A DNA stretch of 64,000 bases from Thermoplasmatota archaeon (GTDB taxonomy: Archaea > Thermoplasmatota > E2 > JACPAO01 > JAHFTW01): NCBI GenBank assembly GCA_041601615.1, contig JBFIHX010000007.1, positions 87,805 through 151,804 of the forward strand, given 5' to 3'. Made by a program: the position numbers and the translations under genes. This document shows positions 4,822 through 48,008 of the stretch, one piece after another. Below the pieces are notes generated by a model, which was not told the DNA's origin, ran no database searches, and saw only the letters and a program-made list of their open reading frames with translations. Within the stretch, counting starts at the first letter, position 1. Every line of letters starts with the position of its first letter.

Positions 4822-6837
4822 ATGACCCGAACCGGTCCCTGGACTCTCGTCCTGTTGTTCGTATTCGCCTCGACTGCCGTGATGGTCGATACTGCGCAGG
4901 CCCAATTGGAGCAAACGGGCTCCGTGGAAGGCATGACCTGCATCGATGGCTCGGATGGCTGCTGGAACGCCATCCCCAACGCCACCATTACTCTGGAGCG
5001 CACCGACGGTGTCGTACCTGCCTCCTACAAGACCACCAGCAACAGCGACGGCTGGTTTGGATTCAAGGAAGTCCCCGCGGGCACATACAAGGCAAGCGCA
5101 AGCCACACGGGCTTCTCTGTTGCATCCAGCTCCGTGCTCGTTAAGGCCGAAAACGCAAGCCGCATCGAGCTTCGCCTCGAACCCCAAAGCGTCACCCCCT
5201 CCGTAACTGTGGCAAACGAATCCGGCAGCGGCATCGACGCGACCGTCCGCTGGTGGTCCGACCGCACCTCAGGCTCCAGCAAAATCAGCGCCGGCAAAGG
5301 CAGCCTCTCCACCACGAGCGGCTACCACTCCTTCGAAATCAGCGCCCCCGGCTACGCCCAGACCAACAAGTGGTTCCTCGTAGACGGCACCGCAATCAGC
5401 TTCACCCTCGCCAAGGTGCCCCCGCAAACAGCCACCATCACCGGCGTCATCAAGGACCAAGACGGCACGCCTGTCTCTGGCGCCATTGTGGAAGTCTACC
5501 AATACGGCGGCTACGACTACGACTACGACTATGAGTACGAGGAAGCACCCCCTGAATCGTCCTCCTCCAGCCCAAGCCCAATTCGTGAACCCTACTACCC
5601 GCAATACGGCGGCAACAACCAAACCCGAACCGCCGCCGACGGCTCGTACCGCATCCACGTCTGGGCCGGTGAAGTCAATCTCAACATCCACAAGGCAGGC
5701 CACGCCCAACGCCACGACAACGTCGCGGTCAAAGACGGCCAGACCCTGAACCTCGACGTGAAACTGCTGAAGTTCCCCGAGAAAACCGCCCACATCGAAG
5801 GCCGCATCATCGGCAGCGACGGCAAGGCTCTGCGCTACGTCTCCCTGAACCTCTGGAGCCCTGCCTACGGCATTCGCGAATGCAGCATCCAAGCGGAAGA
5901 CGCCCAAAGCAAGCAAAGCGGAACCGGCAACAGTAGTAGCAGCGGCGGCAGCGGAAGCACCGGCAGCAGCACCGAACCGGCCATCGCCTACCCCGAACCA
6001 TACCCCTACTACGACCCCGGCTGCGTCATCACCATGTACGCCGACGGCACCTTCAATGGCGATGTGACCCCCGGCTACACCATCCTCGAAGCCTGGCACG
6101 ACCACTGGCGCACCTGCAACGAAACCAGCAGCAGCGACGGCAGCTTGAGCCGCACCTGCGGCCCCGAGTACCTCGGATACTCCCGCACACTCGACCTGCA
6201 AGCAGACCAAACCACCAAGATCGTCGTGCAGCTGGTTGCCCGCCCCGCCCCCGACGCCCGCGTCAGTGGCTACGTCGTCGACAAGGACACCAAGACGGCC
6301 ATCCCCGGCGTCCAAGTGCAATTCAGCAACGAAGAAAACTACGGCTGGGGCAACGCCGGCACCGACAAGGACGGCAGCTACAACGTCAAACTGCGCAACG
6401 GCTACCACCGAGTCCACGTCTGGGCCGAAGGCTACCTCCCCTGGCAAGGCACCCTGTTTGTCCCCGCCAAAGGCAACATCGACCTCGACATCGTGCTAAC
6501 CCCCGGCCAAGAAACCTACGGATACTGCTGCTACGCCTACGACGACATGGCCTACGCCGAATCCAGCGACGGATCCGTCAAAGCCTCCTCCTCGCCCCGG
6601 CCCGCAACGGCCCCGCCCATGGAGTCCAGCGCCGAAACATCTGAGTCCCGCAACACCAACAGCGGCGGCTCCGACGGCGAGACCGTGCAGGACCTCGGCG
6701 GCGGCCTCGGCCCCTACGACGCCAAGAAACGCGCAGCCCTGCAAGAGTCCAGCGACAACGGCGCTCCCGGCGCCGGCATCGCCCTGCTTGCCATGGCGCT
6801 GCTTGGTGCCCTGCTCATCGCCAGGCGACAACAGTAA
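4822..6837 (+). CDS. secreted surface protein with tandem carboxypeptidase-regulatory-like (CarbopepD_reg/transthyretin-like) domains and a PGF-CTERM-like tail
   Basis: Start refined to ATG 4822: 'MTRTGPWTLVLLFVFASTAVMVDTAQA'. Repeated 'xIxGxVxDxxGxPIxGAxV' beta-sandwich units occur throughout. C-terminus '...GAPGAGIALLAMALLGALLIARRQQ*'. The upstream part of the track ORF (4285..4821) has no signal peptide and is read as spurious. Confidence 0.7.
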   Translation: MTRTGPWTLVLLFVFASTAVMVDTAQAQLEQTGSVEGMTCIDGSDGCWNAIPNATITLERTDGVVPASYKTTSNSDGWFGFKEVPAGTYKASASHTGFSVASSSVLVKAENASRIELRLEPQSVTPSVTVANESGSGIDATVRWWSDRTSGSSKISAGKGSLSTTSGYHSFEISAPGYAQTNKWFLVDGTAISFTLAKVPPQTATITGVIKDQDGTPVSGAIVEVYQYGGYDYDYDYEYEEAPPESSSSSPSPIREPYYPQYGGNNQTRTAADGSYRIHVWAGEVNLNIHKAGHAQRHDNVAVKDGQTLNLDVKLLKFPEKTAHIEGRIIGSDGKALRYVSLNLWSPAYGIRECSIQAEDAQSKQSGTGNSSSSGGSGSTGSSTEPAIAYPEPYPYYDPGCVITMYADGTFNGDVTPGYTILEAWHDHWRTCNETSSSDGSLSRTCGPEYLGYSRTLDLQADQTTKIVVQLVARPAPDARVSGYVVDKDTKTAIPGVQVQFSNEENYGWGNAGTDKDGSYNVKLRNGYHRVHVWAEGYLPWQGTLFVPAKGNIDLDIVLTPGQETYGYCCYAYDDMAYAESSDGSVKASSSPRPATAPPMESSAETSESRNTNSGGSDGETVQDLGGGLGPYDAKKRAALQESSDNGAPGAGIALLAMALLGALLIARRQQ

Positions 6838-6863
6838 GACCCCCCTTCTCCCATCTTATTCCC

Positions 6864-7340
6864 ATGGAGCTTTGGTTGCTTCGCCATGCCCACGCTCCAT
6901 GGACCTCCTCCATTCCCGACGCCGAGCGCCCCCTTGACGCACTAGGCATGCAACAAGCAGACGAAACGGGAGCCTGGATGCGCCAACAACGCCTCCGCCC
7001 CGACCACATCCTCGTCAGTCCCGCCGTGCGCACGCGCCAAACAGCCGAGAGGGTTCTCGGCGCCCAGGCACAAAGATGCGTTGTCGATCCTCGACTCTAC
7101 GAAGCACGACTCGACGACCTGCTTCGCGCCCTACAAGACATCCCCGCTGACGCCCAGCGCGTCCTCCTCGTCGGCCACAACCCCGGCATGGAGCAACTGG
7201 TGCGATACCTTGCGCCTCGTTCCTCCACCGATGAACCGGAACTGGACGTCCAACCCTGCACCCTGGTCCGGCTCCGCATCCACGGATTCACCAACAACGG
7301 TGGCAAAATCTTAGAGATCCATCGAACCGGAACCCCGTGA
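6864..7340 (+). CDS. sixA: phosphohistidine phosphatase SixA-like (histidine phosphatase superfamily)
   Basis: 'LWLLRHAHA' is the RHG catalytic motif at the N-terminus. '...LLVGHNPGMEQLV' gives the second His. At about 158 aa it has SixA size. Confidence 0.7.
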   Translation: MELWLLRHAHAPWTSSIPDAERPLDALGMQQADETGAWMRQQRLRPDHILVSPAVRTRQTAERVLGAQAQRCVVDPRLYEARLDDLLRALQDIPADAQRVLLVGHNPGMEQLVRYLAPRSSTDEPELDVQPCTLVRLRIHGFTNNGGKILEIHRTGTP

Positions 7341-8189
7341 CTCCGCCTCTCGAAGCGACGAAGCCACGCTGGCCAACGCACGAAGACCCGGCACCGTACG
7401 CGTTCCAAACCAAGTAAGCGCCTCACCGTCGATCACAAGCTTTCGCTCCTGCACCCCGGCCCGCCCGAGCCCCGCCGTATCGATTTGCTCCAATTTCTTG
7501 TCAAATGGATACGGCTCCGTAGGCAACAAAGTCCAAGCCGCACCCGACGCCGCGACCTCGGCCGCATCGACTTGGAAATACTTGGGTCCCTGATGGCGCC
7601 CAAATACATTGGCAAGCCCCACCGCCGCCAGCATCGCATGCGGATACGCCGAGCGGTCAAACGTCATCCAAGGATCATACCAAATCGGACAAAACACCGG
7701 CACCGCCAACTGATTGCGCGTCGGCCGCACCGCCTCCAGAGTCTCGCGAATCAACATGGCCGCCGCCAAGCCCGCATCCGGAACCCCACACCGAATCCCA
7801 AGCTCATCCAAAAACGTTGCAGCATCCTCCACCGAATCAATTTCTGAGTGCAAAACCTCCACGCCCGCCGCCCGCAGCGCCTCCACGAGCGCCAACGGAT
7901 TCTCATCCTTGTCCACCACCACAAGATCAGGTTCAAGCGCCAAAATTTTCTCCAACTTGGCATCCTTCGTGCCGCCCACAACAGGAATGGAATCGACCCA
8001 AGGAGCCGGCGCGATGCAAAACCGAGTCCGGCCCACGACGCGGTTGGCCAAACCCAAATCATGCAAGCTCTCCGTGTGGCTCGGAACCAGGGACACAATA
8101 CGCTGCGGGGGCTGCACAAGGGCGCGGAGGCGCACGGGATGGAAACGGTTGCGTCCGGCAAACGACCACACCCAACCCACCAATTTCAT
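7311..8189 (-). CDS. ABC-transporter substrate-binding protein (TroA/BtuF/FecB-like cluster A metal/siderophore/cobalamin-binding)
   Basis: 'RIVSLVPSHTESLHDLGL...VVG' and 'LEPDLVVV' are typical of the periplasmic-binding-protein type 2 fold. Confidence 0.6.
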   Translation of the reverse strand: MKLVGWVWSFAGRNRFHPVRLRALVQPPQRIVSLVPSHTESLHDLGLANRVVGRTRFCIAPAPWVDSIPVVGGTKDAKLEKILALEPDLVVVDKDENPLALVEALRAAGVEVLHSEIDSVEDAATFLDELGIRCGVPDAGLAAAMLIRETLEAVRPTRNQLAVPVFCPIWYDPWMTFDRSAYPHAMLAAVGLANVFGRHQGPKYFQVDAAEVAASGAAWTLLPTEPYPFDKKLEQIDTAGLGRAGVQERKLVIDGEALTWFGTRTVPGLRALASVASSLREAESRGSGSMDL

Positions 8190-8282
8190 TCATCGACCCT
8201 GACCACAACCGTATTCACCCGCCGCCAAGTGGATTCCTTCGTGGATGGGCCCGGCGCCGACGCGGCACCCTCAAAACCCAGC

Positions 8283-9557
8283 ATGGGCAAGCGCATCGTC
8301 GAGCTCGTGCTCGGCAAACCCAAAACGGAACGCAAACCGCGCCCGCACCCCTTTGCCCACGAATCAACAAGCGACGCCGAAAGCCACTACACGGCCAAAC
8401 AAGTGCTCGCATTCTGGGGCGGCATCGCCACCCTCATCGCCGTCAGCAGCCTGCTTCTGGCCGACCGCTTCAGCCCCCACTCAGCCGGCTGGTTCGGCGG
8501 CCACGGCGCAAGCGGCCCAAGCTTAGCCTGGGAATCCTGGACCCTCGTCCCCCTCTTTGCAGGACTCACACTCCTCGGCTTCGGCTTCGTCCACCAACCC
8601 TGGGCCAAACGCCTCACCCTCGTCGGCTGGGTGCTGTTTGGAACCTACTGGGGCCTCACCGCCACCGACCTCTTTGTCAAAGAAGACAGCGACTACGTCA
8701 ACTTCGTCTTCGCCGTCGTCGGCGTCTACTTCTTCACCTACCTCGCCTACCACCAATGGCTGGACCTCGCCCGCAAAAGCGACACCCACGCCCTGCACTT
8801 TCTCAACGTCACCGCATTCATCGCCGCAGGCACCTACTTTCTAATTGCCAAAATCACCTTCCTCCGCGTCTGGCTCATCCACATCGTCGGAAACCACACA
8901 AAATGGATGCTCGACCTCTTTGGCCAAGGCAGCAAACAAAACATCCAATTCATCGTAGACAAGACCGACAGCCAAGGCCCTGTGACCTTCTTCTATCCGC
9001 AATACTACTGCGACTGGCAATACCGAGGCGACGCCGTGGGCCGATACTGCCTCGAAAACGGCCGCCTCTCCGAAAGCACCGTCGTAGCCAACTCCGGCTT
9101 CCTCGGCAACCTATGGACCTGGACCCCCGAAGTCGGCATCGAATATGTCGTACCCGTCAGCATCATCCTCGCCTGCACCGCCATCCAAAGCATCATGCTC
9201 TTCGTCGGCCTCTTTGCCGGCACCAAAGCGAACTTCCAACGCAAACTCAAGGCGAGCCTCATCGTCGGCGCCATCATCTACGTCCTCAACCTCGTGCGCA
9301 ACACCGGCATCATCTGGTTCTACGGCCAAGGCCACGCCAGTTTCTGGATGATGCACAACGCCATCGGCAAAGGCGGCAGTCTGCTGGCCATGGTCGGCAT
9401 CGCCTTCGCCGTCTTCAAGTGGTTCCCGGAGTTTTTCCACAGCCTCGTCTCCGTGCTCGACCTGCCCGACCGCGACGGCCCCATCGAACGCGCCCTCAAA
9501 GTCGGCCGGCGCCGACCAGAAGCCGCAGCACCCGTCAAGTTTGCCGGCGAAGACTAG
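8283..9557 (+). CDS. artA: archaeosortase A-like polytopic membrane protein (exosortase/archaeosortase family candidate)
   Basis: Start refined to ATG 8283 (MGKRIVEL...). It has 8 or more TM helices and a TM Cys in 'SIILACTAIQS' (Cys298). An 'NLVR' Arg follows 41 residues later (Arg339); for comparison H. volcanii ArtA has Cys173/Arg214, recalled from memory. It lies immediately upstream of psd-pssA, the neighbourhood conserved for ArtA. One hydrophilic loop is unusually long. Confidence 0.5.
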   Translation: MGKRIVELVLGKPKTERKPRPHPFAHESTSDAESHYTAKQVLAFWGGIATLIAVSSLLLADRFSPHSAGWFGGHGASGPSLAWESWTLVPLFAGLTLLGFGFVHQPWAKRLTLVGWVLFGTYWGLTATDLFVKEDSDYVNFVFAVVGVYFFTYLAYHQWLDLARKSDTHALHFLNVTAFIAAGTYFLIAKITFLRVWLIHIVGNHTKWMLDLFGQGSKQNIQFIVDKTDSQGPVTFFYPQYYCDWQYRGDAVGRYCLENGRLSESTVVANSGFLGNLWTWTPEVGIEYVVPVSIILACTAIQSIMLFVGLFAGTKANFQRKLKASLIVGAIIYVLNLVRNTGIIWFYGQGHASFWMMHNAIGKGGSLLAMVGIAFAVFKWFPEFFHSLVSVLDLPDRDGPIERALKVGRRRPEAAAPVKFAGED

Positions 9558-21180: not shown

Positions 21181-21960
21181 TCAGCTTGCGTAGGTTCGAA
21201 TCAGGTCCGTCCTGGTGACGATACCTTCGATGGTGCCGCGACCGTCGACGATGGGCAGCGCTCCGACGTGGTGTTGCCGCATCAGACCCGCCGCCTCCAT
21301 GGCAGTCATGTCACTGCGGCCCGTGATCACTTCGCGTCGCATCCAGTCGCCTACTTGCATGTCGCGAATGGTCGCCTTCTGGACGCTTTGGTCGGCTTCC
21401 TTGAAGCCGGCAAAGGCGCTGGCAATTTCATGCTCGGCGATGATGCCGGCAATGCGGCCACCGTCAAGCACCGGCAAACGCGCCACATCGTTGTCGAGAA
21501 TCATGCGACGGGCATGAATCATGCGCTCGCCTGGACTGACGGAGTGCACTTGTCGGTGCATCAATTCCGCCAGGCGCCGATCGCTCTTGACCAGCGGCAG
21601 CAGGTCGCTCTTTGTGACGACGCCCACGAGGTGGTCGCCTTGGACCACGGGAATCATCGTCAGGCCTGGTTTGCCCACGTCGGCCAGCAGCGTTGCAAGC
21701 GGTTCGTCCGGGTGCGCGACGATGAAGTCCTTCTCCATCACGCCGCTCGCGTGGAGCGTACTGGTCTGAATGTTCTTGTTGTGGGCCCGACCCAGTTTGT
21801 CGGCAATGTGCCCATCCGTGACGATGCCTACAAGGCGGCCGTCTTCGGTCACGGGGATTTTGGTCATGTTGTGCTGCTCCATGAGAGCGAGCACGTCCTT
21901 CAGGTTGCGGTCTTTGTCCACAGTGATGAGTTCCGTGGACATTACTTCTCGTACTTTCAT
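21181..21960 (-). CDS. CBS-domain protein (two CBS pairs)
   Basis: Start at M42 'MKVREVMSTELITV'. Four CBS repeats each carry an 'xxLPVxDxGxLVGIVTxxDL' pattern. Confidence 0.8.
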   Translation of the reverse strand: MKVREVMSTELITVDKDRNLKDVLALMEQHNMTKIPVTEDGRLVGIVTDGHIADKLGRAHNKNIQTSTLHASGVMEKDFIVAHPDEPLATLLADVGKPGLTMIPVVQGDHLVGVVTKSDLLPLVKSDRRLAELMHRQVHSVSPGERMIHARRMILDNDVARLPVLDGGRIAGIIAEHEIASAFAGFKEADQSVQKATIRDMQVGDWMRREVITGRSDMTAMEAAGLMRQHHVGALPIVDGRGTIEGIVTRTDLIRTYAS

Positions 21961-22223
21961 AGGGTTGCGCCTCAGCGAAGCGTGCACCTGCCTCCAAGTG
22001 GGCTTTGGACCGCGCCGCCGGGAATCCCACCCGAGGTGCGCGCCCTTTGCAGTTGGTCGGTTCGATCCGGACCTTGCACGCAACCCATAGTATCAAGTTC
22101 CGAGCTTATCAGCGCTTCGTATGGACCCAGCGCCCGGGAGTACACAAGAGGGCATTCTGACCCCGAAGTAGTTTCACTGGCGTCTCCCGTTCCTTTGTAA
22201 TCCACGCCAAGGCTTCCTCATTC

Positions 22224-22718
22224 GTGCCCGCCGCCACGGCCTCCCGGCCGCCGAGCAAGATCAACCGCGCCGCCAAAGGAGCCGCCATCGAACTCAAGGC
22301 GATCAAACTTCTCGAACTCGAAGGCTACACCATCCACCGCTGCATTCGAACCGGAGTACGTCGTGGCGGACTCTGGATCAGCCAAAGCAACGACATCTTC
22401 GGCTGCATCGACCTCGTGGCCAAAAAACGCGGCGAACGCACGCGCTGGATCCAAGTCACCTCCCACAGCGGCGTTGGCCAGAAAAAAGAGGACCTCGCCG
22501 AAGTTCCATGGGACCCCATCCACGACTCCGTGGAAATCTGGCGCTGGATCGGCGGCGCGCGCCGCAAACACAAAACCACCGGCGCCTGGCTGGACCGCCA
22601 ATACTTCCAAATCTACCACCTCGACGACGACTACGCCCTCGTGCCCGAGCGACGCATACGCGAACCACCCGAATGGAACCCCGAAGAAGACTGCACCTTC
22701 GGAGGCGAGGAAGAATGA
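22224..22718 (+). CDS. Hjc-like PD-(D/E)XK nuclease-fold protein (Holliday-junction-resolvase homolog with degenerate E-x-K)
   Basis: 'KGAAIELKAIKLLELEGYTIHR' aligns to the Hjc N-terminal 'KG..ERELIKLLE..GFAVVR'. 'CIDLVAKK' corresponds to the catalytic Asp of 'VDLVAG'. The Hjc 'EVK' position reads 'IQVTS' (Q-x-T). The 3' end overlaps the mutS2-like start. Confidence 0.5.
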   Translation: MPAATASRPPSKINRAAKGAAIELKAIKLLELEGYTIHRCIRTGVRRGGLWISQSNDIFGCIDLVAKKRGERTRWIQVTSHSGVGQKKEDLAEVPWDPIHDSVEIWRWIGGARRKHKTTGAWLDRQYFQIYHLDDDYALVPERRIREPPEWNPEEDCTFGGEEE

Positions 22719-24637
22719 GTCCAAACGCCGCTCCGTCCCTGGAAACCCTGCCCGGAGTCGGCCCCGGACTCGCTGCGGCCCTGCGCAAACGCTTCGGCGG
22801 CGACCAAGGCTTCTTCGACGCCGCGACCCGGCTCGACGTACAAGCCATCAGCAGCGTCGAAGGCATCAGCGAACGACGCGCCGTAGACCTCGTGCGATTC
22901 GTGCGCGGAGACGCCGATGCCGGGCGCTTCCTAGCCACCCCCGCGGCGCGAAAGGTCCACGACGCCGTCATGGAACGACTCATGCGGTTTGCCGCCACCG
23001 ACGTGGGACGCAACCGCTTGCGCCTCCTGCACCCCCTTGCAACTCCAAAGGCCGCCAAGGAACGCGCGGCGCATGTGATGGCGCAAAAAGCGAAAGTCAC
23101 GGACCTCGACCGACGCCGCGTGCGCGACTTGCTGCGCCGCATCAAACCCCTGCAAGAACCGAACGCCATCTGCGACACCACTTGCTTGGTCATTGCCGGC
23201 GACGACGAGACCTACGAGAACCTGCACGGACTTGGCGTGCGCCGTTGGGCGATGCTCGGAACTGCGCGCGACGTAGAACAAGCCGGCGACGTGGAACTTC
23301 TTCTGCTCGTGGACGCAGAAGGCATCGAAGTGGACGTGCCCCACGCACACGACGTACTTTCTGCCGGTGGACTTGCAGCGATCACCCCGCAAGCGCTTCT
23401 GGCCTGGGCCCGCGCCAACCGAGGAACCCTCGAAGCGTGCCGTGACCTCGGCGTGCTGCTGGACCGCCCCAGCCGCGCCGCCGCCGTGCTCGAAACCGTG
23501 GACGGGCTCGGCCCCGCCGCCGCCCCAACCGACCTGATGGATTGTGTCGAGCGCGTGAAACTGGAACTTGACCAGCGCCTGGAAATCGCAGTGGCCGACC
23601 TTAGCCTCGGCGGCTCTGAATTGCTGCGCGCCGTGAGCAGCGGCACCCTCCCACCCGCCCTCAAAACCGCCGTGGACACCGTCCTACGCGAGGGTCGCAA
23701 CCTTTTGCGCGAACGCACCGGCGTCAGTTTCCAACCGTTTTTGCCAAAATACCCCGTGGAAATCGACGACGACGAGGTGCAACGCGTCGTGCAAGCCGCC
23801 CAAGCCCACACGCGCACCCAGACCTTCCAAAAACAACAAGCCGCCGCCAAAATCGTCGCCCAAACCCAAGAACCGCTGGCAGCCGAAGTAGCGCAATGGC
23901 TCGAATTCGACGCCGACTTCGCTCTCGGCTGCTTTGCCCACCACCACGACCTGCACCCAGCCCAATTCGGAGCGAACCTGCAATTTTCGTCCAGCATCCA
24001 CCTCGACCTTGCCGCAACACCCGGGGCCCAGCGCATCGCCTACCAAATTGGAGGCGAAGCACAGATTGCTGTCCTCACAGGGGCCAACAGTGGTGGAAAA
24101 TCGACGCTCCTCGAACACCTTTGCCAGCTTGCGCTCATGGCACGCATGGGCCTCCCCGTCGCGGGCCAAGACGTAGAAGTTCCTTGGGTCGATGAAGTGC
24201 ACCTCGTCACCGCCCGCCGCGGCATGGACGCGGGCGCCTTCGAGACTTTCCTCAAGGGCTTCCTTCCCGTCGTGCGCGGCGACGCCAAGCGCCTCGTGCT
24301 TGCTGACGAAGTGGAAAGTGTCACGGAACTAGAGGCAGCCGGCCGCATTCTGGCGTTCTTTGCCGACAAGCTCGCGGAAACCGAATCCCTCGGAGTCATT
24401 GTCACACACATGGCCGAACCGCTGCTTGCCAACGTCCGCACCGCTAAGCTGCGCGTGGACGGCATCGAGGCGACGGGGCTCGACGAGAACAACCAGTTGG
24501 TCGTGGACCGCTGCCCAAAGATGGGCGTGCGGGCGCGCTCGACTCCGGAGTTGATTGTGCAGCGGTTGGTGCGCATGGCGAATGCAGCAGATCGAGAGCT
24601 CTACGGGTCGTTGTTGACGCGGCTCGGAACACCCTAG
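22715..24637 (+). CDS. archaeal MutS2-like ATPase (MutS domain V) with N-terminal helix-hairpin-helix
   Basis: ATG overlaps the upstream stop. 'LETLPGVGPGLAAALRKRFG' is an HhH. Walker A 'LTGANSGGKSTLLE' and the MutS-type 'RLVLADEVESVTE' are present. No Smr domain. Confidence 0.8.
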   Translation: MSPNAAPSLETLPGVGPGLAAALRKRFGGDQGFFDAATRLDVQAISSVEGISERRAVDLVRFVRGDADAGRFLATPAARKVHDAVMERLMRFAATDVGRNRLRLLHPLATPKAAKERAAHVMAQKAKVTDLDRRRVRDLLRRIKPLQEPNAICDTTCLVIAGDDETYENLHGLGVRRWAMLGTARDVEQAGDVELLLLVDAEGIEVDVPHAHDVLSAGGLAAITPQALLAWARANRGTLEACRDLGVLLDRPSRAAAVLETVDGLGPAAAPTDLMDCVERVKLELDQRLEIAVADLSLGGSELLRAVSSGTLPPALKTAVDTVLREGRNLLRERTGVSFQPFLPKYPVEIDDDEVQRVVQAAQAHTRTQTFQKQQAAAKIVAQTQEPLAAEVAQWLEFDADFALGCFAHHHDLHPAQFGANLQFSSSIHLDLAATPGAQRIAYQIGGEAQIAVLTGANSGGKSTLLEHLCQLALMARMGLPVAGQDVEVPWVDEVHLVTARRGMDAGAFETFLKGFLPVVRGDAKRLVLADEVESVTELEAAGRILAFFADKLAETESLGVIVTHMAEPLLANVRTAKLRVDGIEATGLDENNQLVVDRCPKMGVRARSTPELIVQRLVRMANAADRELYGSLLTRLGTP

Positions 24638-25047
24638 GCCCACATGCGTGGGTCAAATTTCACGACCCCTTCCTTGCGCACCTCACCCCAGTCATCAGCG
24701 GCCGGATTCAGCAGCACATTCCGCCCCGGCACCACGACACTCGGAACCGTCGCCGCCAAGGCTCCCGAATCCAGAAATGCGGAGCCCCTGCGGCCGGAGC
24801 CTTCGTTGCGTTTCCCGGTCAATTCCGGTACGTCGTCGGGGATCTCGGCGCTGACGAGCCGCCATCGTTCGAGGTCTAAGGGCAGGACCCCTCCGGCCAT
24901 CACTTCGAGAACCGCAAGGGCGGCGTGTTCGCTGGCATACACCATAGGCCGGCCTTTTGGATTCCAGCGGCCGGGAAATTGCCTGGCTCCTTCTCCACTC
25001 CAGGCCTCCTTGACGAACCGTTCGTGGACGCATCGCCAGACCCGCAT
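24634..25047 (-). CDS. RES-domain toxin (RES-Xre TA system)
   Basis: 'GRWNPKGRPMVYASEHAALAVLE' and '...VPSVVVPGRNVLLNPAA' give the R...E...S residues of the RES domain. The start is taken at M41 (25047) abutting the antitoxin stop. A longer form to 25167 would overlap the antitoxin by 120 nt. Confidence 0.65.
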   Translation of the reverse strand: MRVWRCVHERFVKEAWSGEGARQFPGRWNPKGRPMVYASEHAALAVLEVMAGGVLPLDLERWRLVSAEIPDDVPELTGKRNEGSGRRGSAFLDSGALAATVPSVVVPGRNVLLNPAADDWGEVRKEGVVKFDPRMWA

Positions 25048-25460
25048 CAAAAGACACCGTGGGCGAGGCGGCCGAGCAGGGACTCCACTTCGGCGGCTCC
25101 GATCTCGGTACCTGCGGAAATCAAGGGAGTCCGTCCACCCAATCGAGGGTTTGCGGCCATAAGCCATTCCAAGGCGCGGGGTCCCGGAAAAAGCTCCAAG
25201 GCTGCGTCATAGATTCGTGCAATGCGTGCAATGCGCTCTGATTCATGCTCTGAAAATCCTTTTCCGGCAAGCCTTCGGCGCCCGGTGCTGACGGGAATGT
25301 GGGCGCTTACAAACAATTGCTCCTGCGTCATGCCTGTGATTTCAAGAAATCCCCTGATTTGGGCCGATCGGAGACCTCGGTGAATCTTCTCTGCGAGGGC
25401 CAATCGATCCTCCGCCTTCACCTGGAGACTCACAATCTCAGCACTCATTTGAGACTTCAT
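25047..25460 (-). CDS. Xre-like antitoxin (MbcA/ParS-type, DUF2384-like C-terminal domain)
   Basis: 'GMTQEQLFVSAHIPVSTGRRRLAGK' is an HTH and 'IARIARIYDAALELFPGPRALEWLMAANPRLGGRTPL' is the DUF2384-type C-terminus. It sits immediately upstream of the RES gene. Confidence 0.7.
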   Translation of the reverse strand: MKSQMSAEIVSLQVKAEDRLALAEKIHRGLRSAQIRGFLEITGMTQEQLFVSAHIPVSTGRRRLAGKGFSEHESERIARIARIYDAALELFPGPRALEWLMAANPRLGGRTPLISAGTEIGAAEVESLLGRLAHGVF

Positions 25461-27939: not shown

Positions 27940-29160
27940 GAGAAAAGAGGTGAATAAACTAGCAGGTTCCGCCGGAACCATATCGGACGCACGGGCCGCC
28001 ACCGCCACCACCACCACCACCGCCGAACAAAGTGGGGCCGCAAGCGCCTTCGCGCATGAAATATACTCCGGTTTCAAGCTGCGTCTCAAAATACCTATAA
28101 TGCCCAGCACAAACGGTTGTACCACCATCCGAATCGCTAACTATGAGAATACACGCAGCATCCCCTTTTATATCGCCATTATTAACATTTGAGTAATCAT
28201 AAAGGCCAATACAGTATCCAATATTATCAGTTTCATCATATTGATCATAGAAATCTACGAAATGGTGGCAGATGCCAAATACATCATCTCGAACCCCGAC
28301 CTTATACAAGCAATTCAAGGGATCAGAAGAGGAAGTCTCTACCGATGGTATCGTAGGAGCAAAGGACCATGGGGCAGGAACATATTGAATGTCCAAACAG
28401 ACCTCATCCGGCGAAACACATGTCACGACCGGGACGGGAATCTCATCCGGGAGAATTCCCGTTACGAACCCTAGGTCGATGGGAATACACGAATTAATGC
28501 GGAACTGATTTTCATCCATCGGCCTTCCGGTGCAGAGCCACCACTCTAAGCCCAATGGGTGGCTGTGAAGACAAATGATGGAGGAACCGCCCCCAACCGC
28601 GTAAGCACTAATGGCCAGGCACAAATTGGTTTCTGCCAAATCTCTTTCGACACAAGTTGCGACAAACCAATAGTAAATACCTTGATTGGGCCATTCAAAC
28701 TCCAAATAATTGCAGTTAATGTCTCGATCTTGGCCTTCCCAAGTGGACGCTTGGGCGGGGCCAGTTGCTGAACTTAGTACCAAGGCAGCTAGAGCCACCA
28801 TCATGATCTTTTTTAACATTGTTACACCTTTTAGTTTTCTATCTACTCATATGTTGCACACAGCACAACATCAAATCCCAATGTTCAGGCGTATAAAAGC
28901 ATTCGCGTAAATTGACATTATTTTTCATGAAGTTCGCCTTGCGAATTTCTCCATCGTTCTTTGCCGAAGGTCGCATTTCGACTGAGTTCGTAGCAGATTT
29001 GAGGATATAACCTGATCACGAATTCAACAGTTCGAATTAAGCCCGTAAATAGTCATAAGTATGTTTATACCCGTCATTGGGACATGCGCGGAGATTTATA
29101 GTCTCCCATCCTCCACTATACAGCTAAAAAACCAAGAAAAATGTATAATTCCAACAGATG
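27940..29160. other. AT-rich (~45% GC) insert within a ~67% GC context; putative horizontally acquired islet
   Basis: Seen directly, for example 'tttatatcgccattattaacatttgagtaatcataaaggccaatacagtatccaatattatcag'. It contains one gene and an AT-rich promoter region with a TTTATA element (rc of 'gtataaaag' near 28885). Confidence 0.6.
27959..28819 (-). CDS. Cys-rich secreted protein (~22 Cys) ending in a Gly10 run; no homolog recognised
   Basis: 'MLKKIMMVALAALVLSSATGPAQAS' is a signal peptide. Cys residues are scattered in CxxC-free patterns. C-terminus '...ACGPTLFGGGGGGGGGGPCVRYGSGGTC*' is encoded by a (GGT)n/(ACC)n tract. Codon usage is AT-shifted relative to neighbours. Confidence 0.6.
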   Translation of the reverse strand: MLKKIMMVALAALVLSSATGPAQASTWEGQDRDINCNYLEFEWPNQGIYYWFVATCVERDLAETNLCLAISAYAVGGGSSIICLHSHPLGLEWWLCTGRPMDENQFRINSCIPIDLGFVTGILPDEIPVPVVTCVSPDEVCLDIQYVPAPWSFAPTIPSVETSSSDPLNCLYKVGVRDDVFGICHHFVDFYDQYDETDNIGYCIGLYDYSNVNNGDIKGDAACILIVSDSDGGTTVCAGHYRYFETQLETGVYFMREGACGPTLFGGGGGGGGGGPCVRYGSGGTC

Positions 29161-29164
29161 AAAG

Positions 29165-29860
29165 CTACCACCGCGTCGTGAACCGCTTCTTCCACAGCGC
29201 CTTCAGGTTGCCAAAGCCGTCGCGCCAGGATTCAATCACCGCGTCGCCGATGCGGGCGTGCAACTCGGAGGGAATCTCGGCAGAGGCCACGTCGCGCCGC
29301 TTGAACGCCTCCAATTTGATTTCCTGACTGAAGGCCATGCCGTCCGGGAGCGATTCGAAGGGAATGCGGTCTAGGGCGCTCCGGCGGATGATCCACATGC
29401 CGCTTTGGCTGTCGCGCACTCGGACCCAGAATAGGTTACGAAGCGTTGCGCTCAGGATGAAGTTGCCAAGGCGGTGCTTGGGGCTCATGCTGCCTTCGTG
29501 GAGGGTGCCGTAGCGGTCGCAGGTCACGAAGTCAAGGTCGTTGTCCAAGAGGTGCCGCACGTACTCGGAGGTCTTGTCGAAAGGATAGGTGCCGTCCGCG
29601 TCGCCGGTTACAATCACGTCGCCCGTTGCGGCAGCGAAACCAGTCTTGTAGGCGCGGCCATAGCCTTTGCGAGGTTCCACGATCACGCGGGCTCCTCGCA
29701 CCTCGGCCTCAGATTGGGTTCGGTCCTTGCTGTTGCCATCGACGACCAGCAACTCCCAAGACCAGCCGGCTTCCTGGAATGCGTCCGTGTCCACGGCGTC
29801 GAGGGTGGGGCCGATGCCTTGTTCTTCGTTCAGAGTCGGGATGACGATGCTTACTTTCAT
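29165..29860 (-). CDS. family 2 glycosyltransferase (dolichyl-phosphate hexose synthase-like)
   Basis: 'VSIVIPTLNEE', 'VVDGNSKDRT' and 'GDADGTY' are the GT2 DxD-type motifs. Confidence 0.8.
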   Translation of the reverse strand: MKVSIVIPTLNEEQGIGPTLDAVDTDAFQEAGWSWELLVVDGNSKDRTQSEAEVRGARVIVEPRKGYGRAYKTGFAAATGDVIVTGDADGTYPFDKTSEYVRHLLDNDLDFVTCDRYGTLHEGSMSPKHRLGNFILSATLRNLFWVRVRDSQSGMWIIRRSALDRIPFESLPDGMAFSQEIKLEAFKRRDVASAEIPSELHARIGDAVIESWRDGFGNLKALWKKRFTTRW

Positions 29861-30684
29861 GCGTGTCCTCCGGGAGGCTTGCGGCCCGCCTTCGCGGAAA
29901 GGTATCCGAGAAATCCGAAACCGGCGCGCAACAGGCCCCAGACGGAGCCACCTTGCAGGCGCAGCATTTCGTGGAGTTTGTATTGGTGCCAGAGCCGGCC
30001 GTGCTTGCGCGTCAGTTGCTTGCGGCCAAATCCGTTCCAGTAGGCTTGGCGAAGGAAGCTGCTGACCGATTCGCGGGCGCGGGCATACACAATGGCGTCC
30101 TTGGCGTGGATGATGGCGGCGCCGGCGGCCACGGCGCGGTAGTTGAGGTCGATGTCCTCGGCAGTAACGAAGCGGGCGTCGAAGCGCCCAAGTTCCTCAA
30201 ACAGCGCGCGTGGGTAGGCCAAGTTGCAACTGGGCCAAGTGGTGTCCTGTCCTTTGTGCGGAAGTTCGACGCGGTGCAGGCGGGTAAACGCCCAGAAGCC
30301 GATTACGTCGGTGCGGCCGGCTACGACGCGGCGCGGGTCGCTTTGCCAAGCATCCCACAGTCGTTGGGTCCAGTTCGCATTGGCAATGCAGTCGCCATCG
30401 ATGAATGCAAGTAGGTCGCCCGTGGCGGCTGCGGCTCCGATGTTGCGCCCTTCGCCGCGGCTGCATGGTTGTTGGATGATGCGCAGCGGCAGGAGTCCTT
30501 CGAAGCTGCGGGCACGTTCCACCGTGTTGTCCGTGCTCATGGCGTCCACGAGGATGACCTCGCGCAGATGCGCCTGGCGCATCAGGCTGTCCAATAGGTG
30601 CCGGATGTGGCGGGATTCGTTGCGAACGGTGACGACCACGCTGACGCCGCCCGACCCTTCGTGCGTCTGGGTCGTTTCGCTCAC
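29857..30684 (-). CDS. family 2 glycosyltransferase
   Basis: 'VSVVVTVRNESRHI', 'VILVDAMSTDNT' and 'FIDGDC' are GT2 motifs. There are 4-nt overlaps on both sides. Confidence 0.8.
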   Translation of the reverse strand: MSETTQTHEGSGGVSVVVTVRNESRHIRHLLDSLMRQAHLREVILVDAMSTDNTVERARSFEGLLPLRIIQQPCSRGEGRNIGAAAATGDLLAFIDGDCIANANWTQRLWDAWQSDPRRVVAGRTDVIGFWAFTRLHRVELPHKGQDTTWPSCNLAYPRALFEELGRFDARFVTAEDIDLNYRAVAAGAAIIHAKDAIVYARARESVSSFLRQAYWNGFGRKQLTRKHGRLWHQYKLHEMLRLQGGSVWGLLRAGFGFLGYLSAKAGRKPPGGHA

Positions 30685-45962: not shown

Positions 45963-46092
45963 GGGATTTTGTTGGAAATTAGGAATTGATTTGATTGATA
46001 TTTTTCCGTTTTTTTCTATACTCTGAGCATTCACTTCAAGGAACCTTTGTCAATTCCTACGCCATGCCCCCGCCCGACTGAACTGGCTTTAA

Positions 46093-47169
46093 TCACTCGA
46101 TGCGAGGGCCTGAGTGAAGCGCCCAGGCCTCCCTAAGGCCAACGAGACCGTCGAGATTTTTCGCAATCTCAGGATGGGTTGAAAGTGCGCCATTATCCAT
46201 CCAGGCCTTTCGGGGCTCCAATTGAACCTGAGGACGCCAGGAATCCTGCCAATTCAGGTCCTCGGCCAAGATTCCACTCAATGCGTCATGCGCACATCCA
46301 GCCACGCGTCGAAGGTCAAGCTCAGAAAACTTGCCTTCAATCGTGCTGCGCACTTGCGAGTAGGCACGCCAAAGACTCCGAACAAGTCCTGTTCCCGCCG
46401 CTCGATTGGCCACCAACAACCGGAGTTGTAACTGTGCGTCAGCGATTACGGCCTCAAGTTTGAATGTACCACTAAGATAATCGCGTTTTCGCACAATATC
46501 CTCGTGTGCGGCGGCAGTAATTGCGTTGCTGTCTAGGTCAATTGGAGCCAAGCAAAGTAGGTCGAATAAATCTTTGATTCTGCTCTTTCTGCCATGGTCA
46601 ACGCCCAAATTTCTCCCATACGGGTACTCCGAACACATGAGGAGTTTCTGGGCGGCCTGGGTGTTTTCGTCTGGACCCAGTACAATGGGTCCGGATTTCC
46701 AAGGTGCCGGTAATTTCCACTCGGCTAACCCCTGAGGCCAGTTCGAATATTCCAGAACATCAATTCGCAGCGAGTAGCCAACGCCACCTTGAGCCAATGG
46801 GAAGAAAACTCCAAGTGTATTCCCTTGAAGAGGAGATTTTCCCTGGGTGAGTTGAAGGCCGCTGGCTGAAAAATCATCAACAAATTGCTGAATTGCTCTT
46901 GTAATGGCGGACGAATCATGCGTCTCAAGGTCTACGTCAATGCTGGCCCTTCGCGGAGGCCATCGAAGGCGGCTTTGCAGCAGCGTTCCCCCTTTGAACA
47001 AAAAGGGTTCATCTGCCCGAGTCGAAATTTGACTCAGTACTTCGAGTGCGAGTGCATTGCGAAGCCGTTGTTGGCCCCAAGCACCATGTACATCCAATAG
47101 TCTGCCTTCATCAAATTCTTCTGAATCGGCAAAAAGGTTCGGATGGTCCGGCTTCGCAAATGGACTCAT
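46093..47169 (-). CDS. AbiEii/AbiGii-family nucleotidyltransferase toxin (type IV TA / abortive infection)
   Basis: 'FLFKGGTLLQSRLRWPPRRASIDVDL' matches the AbiEii KGGTAL...DxD NTase motif. The start is refined to M49 (MSPFAKP). Local GC is lower than the flanks. Confidence 0.75.
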   Translation of the reverse strand: MSPFAKPDHPNLFADSEEFDEGRLLDVHGAWGQQRLRNALALEVLSQISTRADEPFLFKGGTLLQSRLRWPPRRASIDVDLETHDSSAITRAIQQFVDDFSASGLQLTQGKSPLQGNTLGVFFPLAQGGVGYSLRIDVLEYSNWPQGLAEWKLPAPWKSGPIVLGPDENTQAAQKLLMCSEYPYGRNLGVDHGRKSRIKDLFDLLCLAPIDLDSNAITAAAHEDIVRKRDYLSGTFKLEAVIADAQLQLRLLVANRAAGTGLVRSLWRAYSQVRSTIEGKFSELDLRRVAGCAHDALSGILAEDLNWQDSWRPQVQLEPRKAWMDNGALSTHPEIAKNLDGLVGLREAWALHSGPRIE

Positions 47170-48008
47170 GCCAACTCCGCAATATATGAACCCACGAGTC
47201 CAGGGACCAAAACCTGGAAGCAGTCTTGCTGATCTCTTGTCAACCTCGGATATACTGCAGTTACAAATGCAGTGAACTCCGGCAGGATGTCGAGGGCTAC
47301 CGCACATTGCCATGCCCGACGTATGTCAAATCCCTGTCGTATCTGATGCTCAACAATGGCTCGACCCACATCGATCTCTGCATCCATCGAAAGGAATTCG
47401 AGCATGATTCGCTCCGAAAAAGGTGTCCGAAATCCCCTGCGGTTCACGGCAGTCCCCCCGATGCGTTCCTCCGCAACGAGGGCAATATCCATCCCTGGGT
47501 CATGCCCCCTCGGCTCACTCGTTAGAGCACCGCCGAGCGGTCCAGCTCGATTGTGTTGGCGCGGCACCAACCACGCCCCATGCCCCTTCCTAGATTCATA
47601 TTCACTATTGAGAACCTCTAGCAATTGCGTCGCAAGGCGGGTCTCGACAACAACGTGCCGCCCTTGGACCCCATCTTCCGACAGGGCGAGATAGGGTGTT
47701 GCGTCCCAGACTACCGTGCGCGCCATTTCCTCCGGGCGCAGATAGGAATGCAAAAACTCGACAAGCCCTTCAATCGGTTCGCCCAGTGCCTCATGAGACC
47801 GAGTTAATGTGTATCGGGCTTTTCCAATTTGGTCGACGACTCCAATCTGAAGCAGTTCCGATAGTCGCCCTCGAAGCGGCCCCGTCGCGGCAGGAGTTCC
47901 CTGTTTTTCCAATTGGTCATGCAATTCTTGGACCGACAATCCTTCCTCTTTGGCCTCGAGCAGCAGGGCTAGGATGTGGTCGCGAAGGCGCAGTATCACA
48001 GCAGTCAT
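47166..48008 (-). CDS. AbiEi-family antitoxin/transcriptional regulator
   Basis: N-terminal wHTH 'LLLEAKEEGLSVQELHDQL' and a C-terminal AbiEi-type domain. The 4-nt overlap with the AbiEii gene is the standard AbiE operon organisation. Confidence 0.7.
   Translation of the reverse strand: MTAVILRLRDHILALLLEAKEEGLSVQELHDQLEKQGTPAATGPLRGRLSELLQIGVVDQIGKARYTLTRSHEALGEPIEGLVEFLHSYLRPEEMARTVVWDATPYLALSEDGVQGRHVVVETRLATQLLEVLNSEYESRKGHGAWLVPRQHNRAGPLGGALTSEPRGHDPGMDIALVAEERIGGTAVNRRGFRTPFSERIMLEFLSMDAEIDVGRAIVEHQIRQGFDIRRAWQCAVALDILPEFTAFVTAVYPRLTRDQQDCFQVLVPGLVGSYIAELA

Follow-up and report, generated by a model that had tools for sequence, protein, structure and literature searches.

A candidate DNA-junction module of uncultured Thermoplasmatota archaea: a small Hjc-related protein encoded in overlap with a probable MutS5-like ATPase

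In the window, i.e., the whole stretch of 64,000 nucleotides of Thermoplasmatota DNA that was analyzed, we found a small gene whose stop codon overlaps the start of a gene for a MutS-family ATPase, and we found the same arrangement in every sufficiently long orthologous locus fetched from one archaeal clade. The small protein belongs to an unnamed family related to Hjc-type PD-(D/E)XK proteins. We give a probability of about 0.5 to the reading that the two genes are one operon and that their products cooperate on DNA as a branched-DNA or junction-processing module. The features of the locus are listed below; residue conservation was counted over 145 diverse representatives of the small-protein family, 144 of which were aligned at D57, D63, Q77, and T79.

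22224..22718, plus strand: small-protein gene, an open reading frame with a GTG start, 164 aa; unnamed PD-(D/E)XK-like family related to Hjc
22290..22292, plus strand: E23 in helix 1, aligning with Hjc E9; E in 112/145 (77%), Q in 26/145 (18%)
22392..22394, plus strand: D57 of the N-D motif, 144/144; inside an insertion peculiar to this family, ahead of strand 2 and without an Hjc counterpart
22410..22412, plus strand: D63, 144/144; aligning with the catalytic Hjc D33 (IDLVA)
22452..22460, plus strand: Q77-V78-T79 (caa gtc acc), aligning with the catalytic E46-x-K48 motif of Hjc (hhalign)
22715..22718, plus strand: ATGA stop/start overlap of the two genes, read from the sequence
22715..24637, plus strand: MutS-family ATPase gene, ATG start at 22715, 640 aa; HhH domain plus MutS domain V, probably MutS5-like
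22739..22897, plus strand: N-terminal helix-hairpin-helix (HhH) domain, residues 9-61 (Pfam HHH_5, E = 7.9e-5; at 23.5 bits it misses the gathering score of 27)
24071..24508, plus strand: MutS domain V ATPase, residues 453-598 (PF00488, 30.4 bits, just over the gathering score of 30.2)
24077-24106, plus strand: Walker A motif TGANSGGKST, within MutS domain V

The small protein and its relationship to Hjc

The preliminary description had pointed out an N-terminal likeness of the small protein to archaeal Hjc, and this was confirmed. In a single BLASTP comparison, KGAAIELKAIKLLELEGYTIHR aligned with residues 4-25 of Pyrococcus furiosus Hjc with 11/22 identities (E = 0.002). In a profile-profile comparison by hhalign, the family matched the Hjc profile with a probability of 88.6 to 89.6% (E = 2-3e-6), which is below 95%, over 59 to 62 columns limited to the N-terminal half of the small protein; reversed and column-shuffled Hjc controls gave ≤1.9% and an unrelated profile 0.15%. 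In the hhalign register, E23, D63, Q77, and T79 fall on Hjc E9, D33, E46, and K48, pointing to a remote homology to Hjc over the catalytic core. Weak matches among family members were found with our own Hjc HMM (two members, E = 0.008 and 0.016) and with two PD-(D/E)XK families, UPF0102 and Mrr_cat (two members each). On the other hand, the Pfam Hjc model (PF01870) did not match the window protein or 69 family members at E ≤ 1. The small protein had no match in Pfam, NCBIfam, PHROGs, or PADLOC, nothing meaningful was found for it in PDB searches with the single sequence or the profile, and tblastn, run for this protein and for two remote relatives from its family, gave no match in GenBank phages or PLSDB plasmids. 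The Hjc HMM search found no canonical Hjc in the window or in any fetched locus.

An AlphaFold model of the small protein (pLDDT 92.2, pTM 0.82) is predicted to run helix, strand, hairpin insert, strand, strand, helix, strand, strand, which contains the alpha-beta-beta-beta-alpha-beta order. Neither this model nor an earlier one (pLDDT 81) matched any PDB structure at E < 1e-3 in Foldseek, and the matches obtained were weak (E = 0.01-0.7, TM 0.2-0.4). About two-thirds of the top 30 were PD-(D/E)XK or related folds, including the R2 endonuclease domain, SPARDA, I-Ssp6803I, AF1548, 3ijm, Cas4 SSO0001, splicing endonuclease, McrC, VRR-NUC, SfsA, and the cap-snatching/PA endonucleases. No Hjc structure was among the top 50, and a search of BFVD gave a single match, to an uncharacterized marine-virus protein. 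The profile-profile comparison, the predicted topology, and the kind of these weak fold matches together support a relationship to Hjc-type PD-(D/E)XK proteins. Canonical Hjc membership cannot be claimed: Pfam Hjc does not match, Foldseek ranked no Hjc structure in its top 50, and only two of the four catalytic positions keep the Hjc residue.

With respect to the Hjc catalytic set of E, D, and E-x-K, the small protein retains the first two as E23 and D63, while E46 and K48 are replaced by Q77 and T79, so that D63...Q77-x-T79 does not conform to the PD-(D/E)XK signature D...(D/E)-x-K. The preliminary description had taken this position for a degenerate E-x-K motif. It does read Q-x-T, but Q77 was found in 142/144 representatives and T79 in 129 (about 90%; with S in 6 more, T/S in 135/144), next to the invariant D57 and D63. 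Q-x-T is a conserved signature of the family and not a degenerate remnant, and a decayed pseudo-nuclease was rejected because these polar residues are invariant across the family. Position 87 is K or R in 139/145 (96% basic), and the whole signature reads G19...E/Q23...N-D57-x5-D63...Q77-x-T79...K/R87...W106. The protein is basic (core pI 9.6; family median 9.8). With Q and T standing in for the E and K of E-x-K, Hjc-type catalysis of the canonical kind is unlikely. Any nuclease activity seems doubtful, since half of the four-residue Hjc catalytic set is replaced and E23 is Q in 18% of the members.

The family is sizeable but has no entry in Pfam, NCBIfam, or PHROGs. We collected 147 close homologues, none of which has a Pfam domain, and 465 cluster representatives of the wider family (50% identity clusters, E ≤ 1e-3). 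Most members occur without MutS, on phage contigs or in tyrosine-recombinase cassettes. Those in phages lie in replication modules beside a DnaD-like loader, DnaB helicase, RecT, and methyltransferases, and paralogues in the same genomes as the gene pair are overlap-coupled to two tyrosine-recombinase-like genes. Such recurring company, together with the strictly conserved but noncanonical N-D...D...Q-x-T motif, suggests that the small protein may be an overlooked accessory factor of recombination.

These observations also bear on a possible, if tentative, alternative, in which the small protein would be a fully active structure-specific endonuclease or nickase activated by the ATPase. Its site would have been relocated, with D57 and D63 binding the metal, Q77 serving as a ligand in the manner of TnsA or HinP1I, and K/R87 in place of the lysine, and the pair would be a MutS-MutH-like system or a MutS2 in two pieces. 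The conservation of D57, D63, and Q77 together with the basic position 87 favors a chemical over a purely structural role, phage members fill the replication-module slot usual for resolvases, and the MutS-like chain itself contains no nuclease domain. There are precedents as well: active PD-(D/E)XK enzymes exist with Q at the E position (TnsA and HinP1I) or without the lysine (BamHI and BglII). However, we know of none that is active with both the E and the K replaced, and E104, like E23, tolerates Q among family members.

Conservation of the gene pair

The gene junction reads gaagaATGAgtcc, in which the TGA of the small open reading frame overlaps the ATG of the MutS-like gene by 4 nt, as originally noticed, and the overlap is also present in independent gene calls. 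By automatic start assignment, the junction is NTGA, TGATG, or a gap of 1 to 2 nt in 26/32 loci; the assignment failed in the remaining 6, with an in-line NTGA visible in 5 of them. The MutS-like gene lies directly 3′ of the small gene in all of the fetched orthologous loci that reach far enough (>30, Thermoplasmatota). The small-protein orthologues are 62 to 89% identical and their MutS partners only 39 to 89%, which, with the homologues counted above, marks the small gene as real and under constraint. The preliminary description had proposed looking for the pairing across archaeal MutS2 loci. The pairing does extend beyond one genome, but the small gene is absent at 80 metagenomic and 4 genomic loci whose MutS-like homologues are 26 to 40% identical. 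It is confined to one clade of uncultured Thermoplasmatota archaea, and the idea that it is a general trait of archaeal MutS-like genes (MutS2/MutS5) was rejected because of its absence at these more distant loci. No description of the pair was found in the searched literature, in agreement with the initial impression of a two-gene module that had not been described, and we know of no Hjc gene coupled to a mutS-like gene.

The genes downstream of the pair, RFK, Trm56, TFE, and HD, are likewise syntenic in this lineage, and the two genes may therefore have stayed adjacent in part through common descent and not through selection. Taken to its end, this would make the two genes merely cotranscribed neighbors of unrelated function, the overlap being kept by genome compaction and shared ancestry. 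The equally syntenic downstream block, the missing pairing at all more distant MutS-like loci, and a small-protein family that works without MutS elsewhere would all fit. We nevertheless consider this improbable, as the overlap persists at almost every fetched locus even though the MutS partner has diverged to 39% identity, and both products have DNA-related features. Moreover, the genes upstream of the pair change between loci (CBS, CN_hydrolase, and FG-GAP), and an insertion, the RES-Xre pair found directly 3′ of the two genes in the window, is tolerated right after the pair but not inside it.

The ATPase and the proposed joint function

The domain V match and its Walker A motif place the large protein in the MutS family, as judged from sequence. 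Across 24 homologues, the most distant of them 26% identical, T455-K462, T464, D531-E532 (Walker B), and the TH histidine H565 do not vary; 81 homologues were found in total, and the HHH_5 domain is also precomputed for many of them. Only 42 residues follow the ATPase domain, and neither Smr nor KOW was detected in the protein, which bears out the earlier view of an Smr-less ATPase. Its label as MutS2-like reflects no more than a weak similarity. The best PDB matches were MutS2 (7vuf, E = 2.7e-7) and MutS, whereas the MutS2 model TIGR01069 reached only 54 bits against a cut-off of 400 (E = 9e-15, residues 363-496 only), which argues against membership of MutS2 proper. There was also a weak KamC match, and a haloarchaeal "MutS-related protein" of Halococcoides showed 37% identity over the ATPase part, which covers 37% of the length. 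The large protein lacks a nuclease domain and is most likely a functional ABC ATPase of the MutS type that resembles archaeal MutS5. To our knowledge, archaeal MutS5-type proteins have no established function and are not needed for mismatch repair, and their sole biochemical clue is Holliday-junction binding. The protein with this activity is the MutS5 of Pyrococcus horikoshii, according to a secondary account (Ohshita 2017, cited in PMC11276520).

In the cooperation on DNA that we favor, the small protein would supply the recognition of branched DNA or junctions and might possibly cut strands through a noncanonical metal site of D57, D63, and Q77, and a dimer of the MutS-like protein would clamp or license recombination or repair intermediates in an ATP-dependent manner. 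The gene anatomy, the homology signal to Hjc, the conserved motif, the intact ATPase motifs, the overlap coupling, and the recurrent company of replication and recombination genes are shown by the sequence data, and a physical interaction of the two proteins, their DNA substrate, and any cleavage are inferred.

Bacterial MutS2 rescues collided ribosomes (PMC10897456), and the pair might similarly act on RNA or ribosomes, with the small protein replacing the missing Smr nuclease. MutS2 proteins are the best characterized relatives of the ATPase by both TIGR01069 and 7vuf, and Trm56 and TFE are among the neighbor genes in the window. We consider this very improbable, given that the ATPase carries an HhH DNA-binding domain, that the reported ligand of archaeal MutS5 is the Holliday junction, and that the small-protein family keeps company with DNA replication and recombination genes. 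Just as remote is a domesticated or still mobile module for defense against foreign DNA or mobile elements, with the ATPase serving a nuclease-like effector: although ATPase plus PD-(D/E)XK is a common defense architecture and family members often turn up in phages and in integrative elements that carry restriction-modification genes, PADLOC was silent on the small protein and gave only P-loop noise for the ATPase, every fetched genome of the clade has the pair at the same chromosomal site, surrounded by housekeeping genes, and the small protein is unusually conserved (62 to 89%), unlike fast-evolving defense genes; the missing PADLOC signal and the fixed housekeeping context led us to downgrade this reading.

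Comparison with known systems

The small protein resembles Hjc and Hje (PF01870; PDB 1GEF, 2WCZ, 1HH1, and 1OB8) in being small and basic, in its N-terminal K-G-x3-E helix, the subsequent strands with I-D-L-V-A, and a third strand where Hjc has E-x-K, and in the same order of secondary-structure elements in the predicted model. It differs from Hjc in the 16-residue insertion with the invariant N-D before strand 2, in the conserved Q and T in place of E46 and K48, and in a C-terminal half that cannot be aligned. Its paralogues, but not the pair, recall the ginABCD islands (GInts), in which a small overlapping accessory gene is likewise in tandem with tyrosine-recombinase-like genes and the cargo, such as restriction-modification genes, is variable. 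However, GInts are bacterial and were reported to be absent from archaea (PMC5385486), their accessory protein is helix-loop-helix whereas the paralogues are PD-(D/E)XK-like, and in the archaeal cassette there are two recombinase-like genes, which include zinc ribbons.

As in bacterial MutS2, the best characterized sequence relative of the ATPase, a MutS-family ATPase is combined with a small nuclease-type module. MutS2 has its core, KOW, and Smr in one chain, whereas the nuclease-like module here is separate, upstream, and of the PD-(D/E)XK type, and KOW is absent. Archaeal MutS5 shares only the MutSac ATPase region with other MutS proteins (Lin, Nei, and Ma, 2007; PMC2190696), and the ATPase of the pair is alike in having this region without mismatch-binding or Smr domains. 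Going by the published descriptions of MutS5, it is distinguished by its HhH domain and by a dedicated upstream partner gene; no partner protein for MutS5 was described in the searched literature. A conserved, overlap-coupled, Hjc-related partner is a concrete and cheaply testable lead on the role of orphan archaeal MutS proteins.

The arrangement can finally be compared, as a putative functional analogy, with MutS-MutL-MutH and with MutS-gamma plus MutL-gamma, in which a separate endonuclease is licensed by a clamp of the MutS family. The MutH endonuclease is itself a PD-(D/E)XK enzyme. Eukaryotic MutS-gamma acts on Holliday junctions, as summarized in PMC11276520. Unlike these systems, the locus of the pair has no MutL homologue, and its nuclease-like protein is without the canonical E-x-K. 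It is conceivable, though we would not expect it, that the Q-x-T family is an unrecognized junction-processing class, common across phages and integrative elements, which one Thermoplasmatota lineage recruited as the dedicated partner of a MutS5-type ATPase, forming a two-component, MutS-licensed resolving or nicking machine that operates without MutL. Such a machine, if real, would be an archaeal counterpart of MutS-gamma/MutL-gamma or MutS/MutH and the first functional handle on archaeal MutS5.

The small protein and its relation to Hjc

Two overlapping genes make up the pair:

22224-22718, + strand, small-protein gene (GTG start, 164 aa, TGA stop)
22715-24637, + strand, MutS-like ATPase gene (ATG at 22715, 640 aa)

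The small protein had no match in Pfam, NCBIfam, PHROGs, or PADLOC. It is a genuine, conserved protein, with 147 close relatives (62 to 99% identity), none of them annotated and every one from a Thermoplasmatota MAG. Searching 1.8 billion cluster representatives with its profile gathered a family of 465 clusters at E ≤ 1e-3. The family is basic (median pI, 9.8), and so is the core of the window copy (pI 9.6), whose tail is acidic. Most orthologues carry an N-terminal D-P-T-[LYF]-P motif (orthologue alignment A1; e.g., proteins P0005, P0009, and P0032) preceding a variable Pro/Ala-rich linker; the motif is absent from the window copy and the orthologues nearest to it. The C-terminal tails PAPTPGGTAT or QDPDNRxLWEVSA are conserved among several orthologues. 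These terminal motifs could be short interaction motifs.

The likeness to archaeal Hjc noted in the preliminary description was upheld by BLASTP (11/22 identities with P. furiosus Hjc over KGAAIELKAIKLLELEGYTIHR) and by profile comparison. In hhalign, the family profile matched a Thermococcales Hjc profile with a probability of 89.6% (E 1.9e-6) and a broader one, including Archaeoglobus and Sulfolobales PDB sequences, with 88.6% (score 41.6, 62 columns). Control Hjc profiles (reversed and eight column-shuffled) scored 8 to 19 with probabilities of ≤1.9%, and an unrelated profile gave 0.15%. A 16-residue insertion (residues 44 to 60) with an N-D motif was left unmatched. The AlphaFold model, built with a diverse alignment (pLDDT 92.2, pTM 0.82), has helix 15-32, strand 36-39, hairpin 43-54, strand 64-67, strand 73-79, helix 84-92, strand 101-109, and strand 127-132, a predicted order that is that of the PD-(D/E)XK core. 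Foldseek found nothing in the PDB at E<1e-3. About two-thirds of the top 30 weak matches were PD-(D/E)XK or related folds (R2 endonuclease domain, SPARDA, I-Ssp6803I, AF1548, 3ijm, Cas4, splicing endonuclease, McrC, VRR-NUC, SfsA, and PA/cap-snatching endonucleases), with lambda exonuclease and Exo5 lower in the list; among family members, two weakly matched UPF0102 and two Mrr_cat. On this basis, an Hjc-related PD-(D/E)XK-like fold is probable. Membership of Hjc itself, whose structures were absent from the top 50 Foldseek matches, was not accepted.

The hhalign register places E23 on Hjc E9, D63 on D33, Q77 on E46, and T79 on K48 (P. furiosus Hjc numbering), so the E-x-K position does read Q-x-T as first described. 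Its characterization as degenerate has to be abandoned: among 145 family representatives, D57 and D63 were each present in 144/144, Q77 in 142/144, and T79 as T in 129 and S in 6, a family-wide conservation that rules out motif decay. Other conserved positions were G19 (136 representatives), W106 (133), K/R87 (139/145), E23 (E in 112, Q in 26), and E104 (E in 110, Q in 19). This pattern of conservation indicates a functional polar site, which may bind metal and cleave DNA or may serve for DNA binding alone. It departs from canonical Hjc chemistry, for which E46 and K48 are required, as established by mutational data on Hjc. The small protein might instead be a genuinely active nuclease with a relocated active site, which we consider possible but rather unlikely.

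Coupling to the MutS-like gene and its range

As previously proposed, the TGA of the small gene overlaps the ATG of the MutS-like gene at 22715 (junction, gaagaATGAgtcc), and gene calls around three orthologues likewise showed the two genes overlapping, by 4 nt or 1 nt. When one genome per species was scanned, 33 loci were recovered, 28 of them with orthologues of 62 to 89% identity, and the MutS-like gene lay immediately downstream in every orthologous locus reaching far enough. The junction was NTGA, TGATG, or a 1- to 2-nt gap in 26/32 loci; automatic start assignment failed in the other six, five of which show an in-line NTGA. Identity of the MutS partner fell as low as 39%, whereas that of the small protein did not drop below 62%, and the genes upstream of the pair varied among genomes. 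Conservation across archaeal MutS loci, raised in the preliminary description, thus holds among orthologous loci but does not extend further. There was no small gene beside the Thermoplasmatota MutS-like homologues of 30 to 38% identity or the haloarchaeal ones, and 0/80 metagenomic loci with full-length MutS-like homologues (27 to 40% identical) had a member of the small-protein family or an Hjc within 4 kb. The pair is restricted to one clade. Such an arrangement could reflect co-transcription of two genes that share no function, a reading that we regard as improbable.

In three distant loci, from a different Thermoplasmatota lineage, a gene for a 208-aa RecA/KaiC-superfamily ATPase replaces the Hjc-like gene and overlaps the MutS-like start by 13 nt, a possible further recombination link for this MutS subfamily:

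L038, 3387-4013, RecA/KaiC-type ATPase gene
L118, 3351-3977, RecA/KaiC-type ATPase gene
L119, 1742-2374, RecA/KaiC-type ATPase gene

The neighbors of the pair in the window are as follows:

21181-22083, opposite strand to the pair, gene with four CBS domains, upstream of the small gene
24634-25167, - strand, RES-domain toxin gene, downstream of the MutS-like gene
25047-25460, - strand, Xre/MbcA/ParS-type antitoxin gene, paired with the RES toxin gene

Beyond the RES/Xre pair (24634-25460) come the genes for CTP-dependent riboflavin kinase, Trm56, and TFE. The toxin-antitoxin pair is an insertion separating the MutS-like gene from the riboflavin-kinase gene, which lies directly 3′ of the MutS-like gene in three relatives (loci L001, L003, and L004). 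The window is archaeal DNA of high GC content (~62%), and two stretches, 28001-30000 and 46001-48000, with 0.52 to 0.53 versus ~0.63 elsewhere, may be horizontally acquired islands. The first includes a gene (27959-28819, - strand) whose 286-aa product is predicted to be secreted, has a poly-glycine C-terminus, and gave no Pfam match.

The MutS-like ATPase

Pfam searches of the large protein gave MutS_V at residues 453 to 598 (30.4 bits versus a gathering score of 30.2) and HHH_5 at residues 9 to 61 (23.5 bits, under the gathering score of 27). Neither Smr nor KOW domains were detected by Pfam in the 640 aa, and the chain ends 42 residues past the ATPase domain, in agreement with its earlier description as Smr-less. 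The label "MutS2-like" reflects weak similarity: the closest PDB sequences are MutS2 (7vuf, E 2.7e-7) and MutS, and the only NCBIfam matches, mutS2 (54 bits; cut-off, 400) and KamC, were sub-threshold. By its architecture, the protein fits the archaeal MutS5 subfamily defined by Lin et al. (PMC2190696), of which the Pyrococcus member has been reported as a Holliday-junction binder (Ohshita 2017, as cited in PMC11276520). Across 24 homologues with identity down to 26%, there is no variation in Walker A (TGANSGGKST), D531-E532, H565, or the C-terminal MutS segment, so the ATPase should be active, as judged from its sequence. A MutS2-like role at the ribosome is highly unlikely because this protein lacks SMR and KOW, the domains by which MutS2 is recruited to ribosomes (PMC10897456).

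Paralogues, viral relatives, and a reading of the pair

Four of the same genomes hold a paralogue of the small protein (~50% identity) without MutS. In 4/4 it sits behind two genes (~449 and 413 aa), overlapping or nearly so, that encode divergent tyrosine-recombinase-like proteins with C-terminal zinc ribbons (PDB XerA 4a8e, E 6.5e-6; NCBIfam XerA, E 6e-6; Pfam Phage_integrase, E 1e-5):

L033, 5515-8399, two recombinase-like genes followed by the paralogue
L034, 5352-8444, same three-gene cassette
L035, 5415-8438, same three-gene cassette
L036, about 5163-8381, same three-gene cassette

The cassette has restriction-modification or defense cargo nearby, its neighbors including a further integrase, methyltransferases, a type II restriction enzyme, Mrr, and ParB/GmrSD-like and SNF2 genes, and this context is that of an integrative element. 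The Thermoplasmatota cassette is similar to the multi-recombinase islands of bacteria, for example GInts, which are reported to be missing from archaea (PMC5385486). At least 35 IMG/VR viral contigs (L041-L075, low-GC phage; e.g., L062 5998-6408 and L043 6001-6429) carry distant family members, which adjoin genes of replication modules (DNA helicase, DnaD-like loader, DnaB-like helicase, RecT, and methyltransferases) and in one case a large terminase. In a subfamily among the distant and viral members, position 23 is Q rather than E. Members of the family were not found in PHROGs, Pfam, GenBank phages, or PLSDB.

Time and again, the family is coupled with proteins making or binding DNA junctions, which is the main reason why a role on branched DNA is favored. 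In the most likely reading, to which we give a probability of about 50%, the pair is a two-protein DNA-processing module, in which the small protein would recognize branched DNA and the HhH-MutS-like ATPase would provide clamping or licensing. A defense module is very improbable, given the lack of a PADLOC signal and the fixed housekeeping context of the pair. In line with the preliminary description, the pair was not found described in the searched literature, and neither was the small-protein family. The components of this putative DNA-processing module are members of known superfamilies, and MutS is already known in combination with a nuclease, as in MutS2-Smr and MutS-MutL-MutH.
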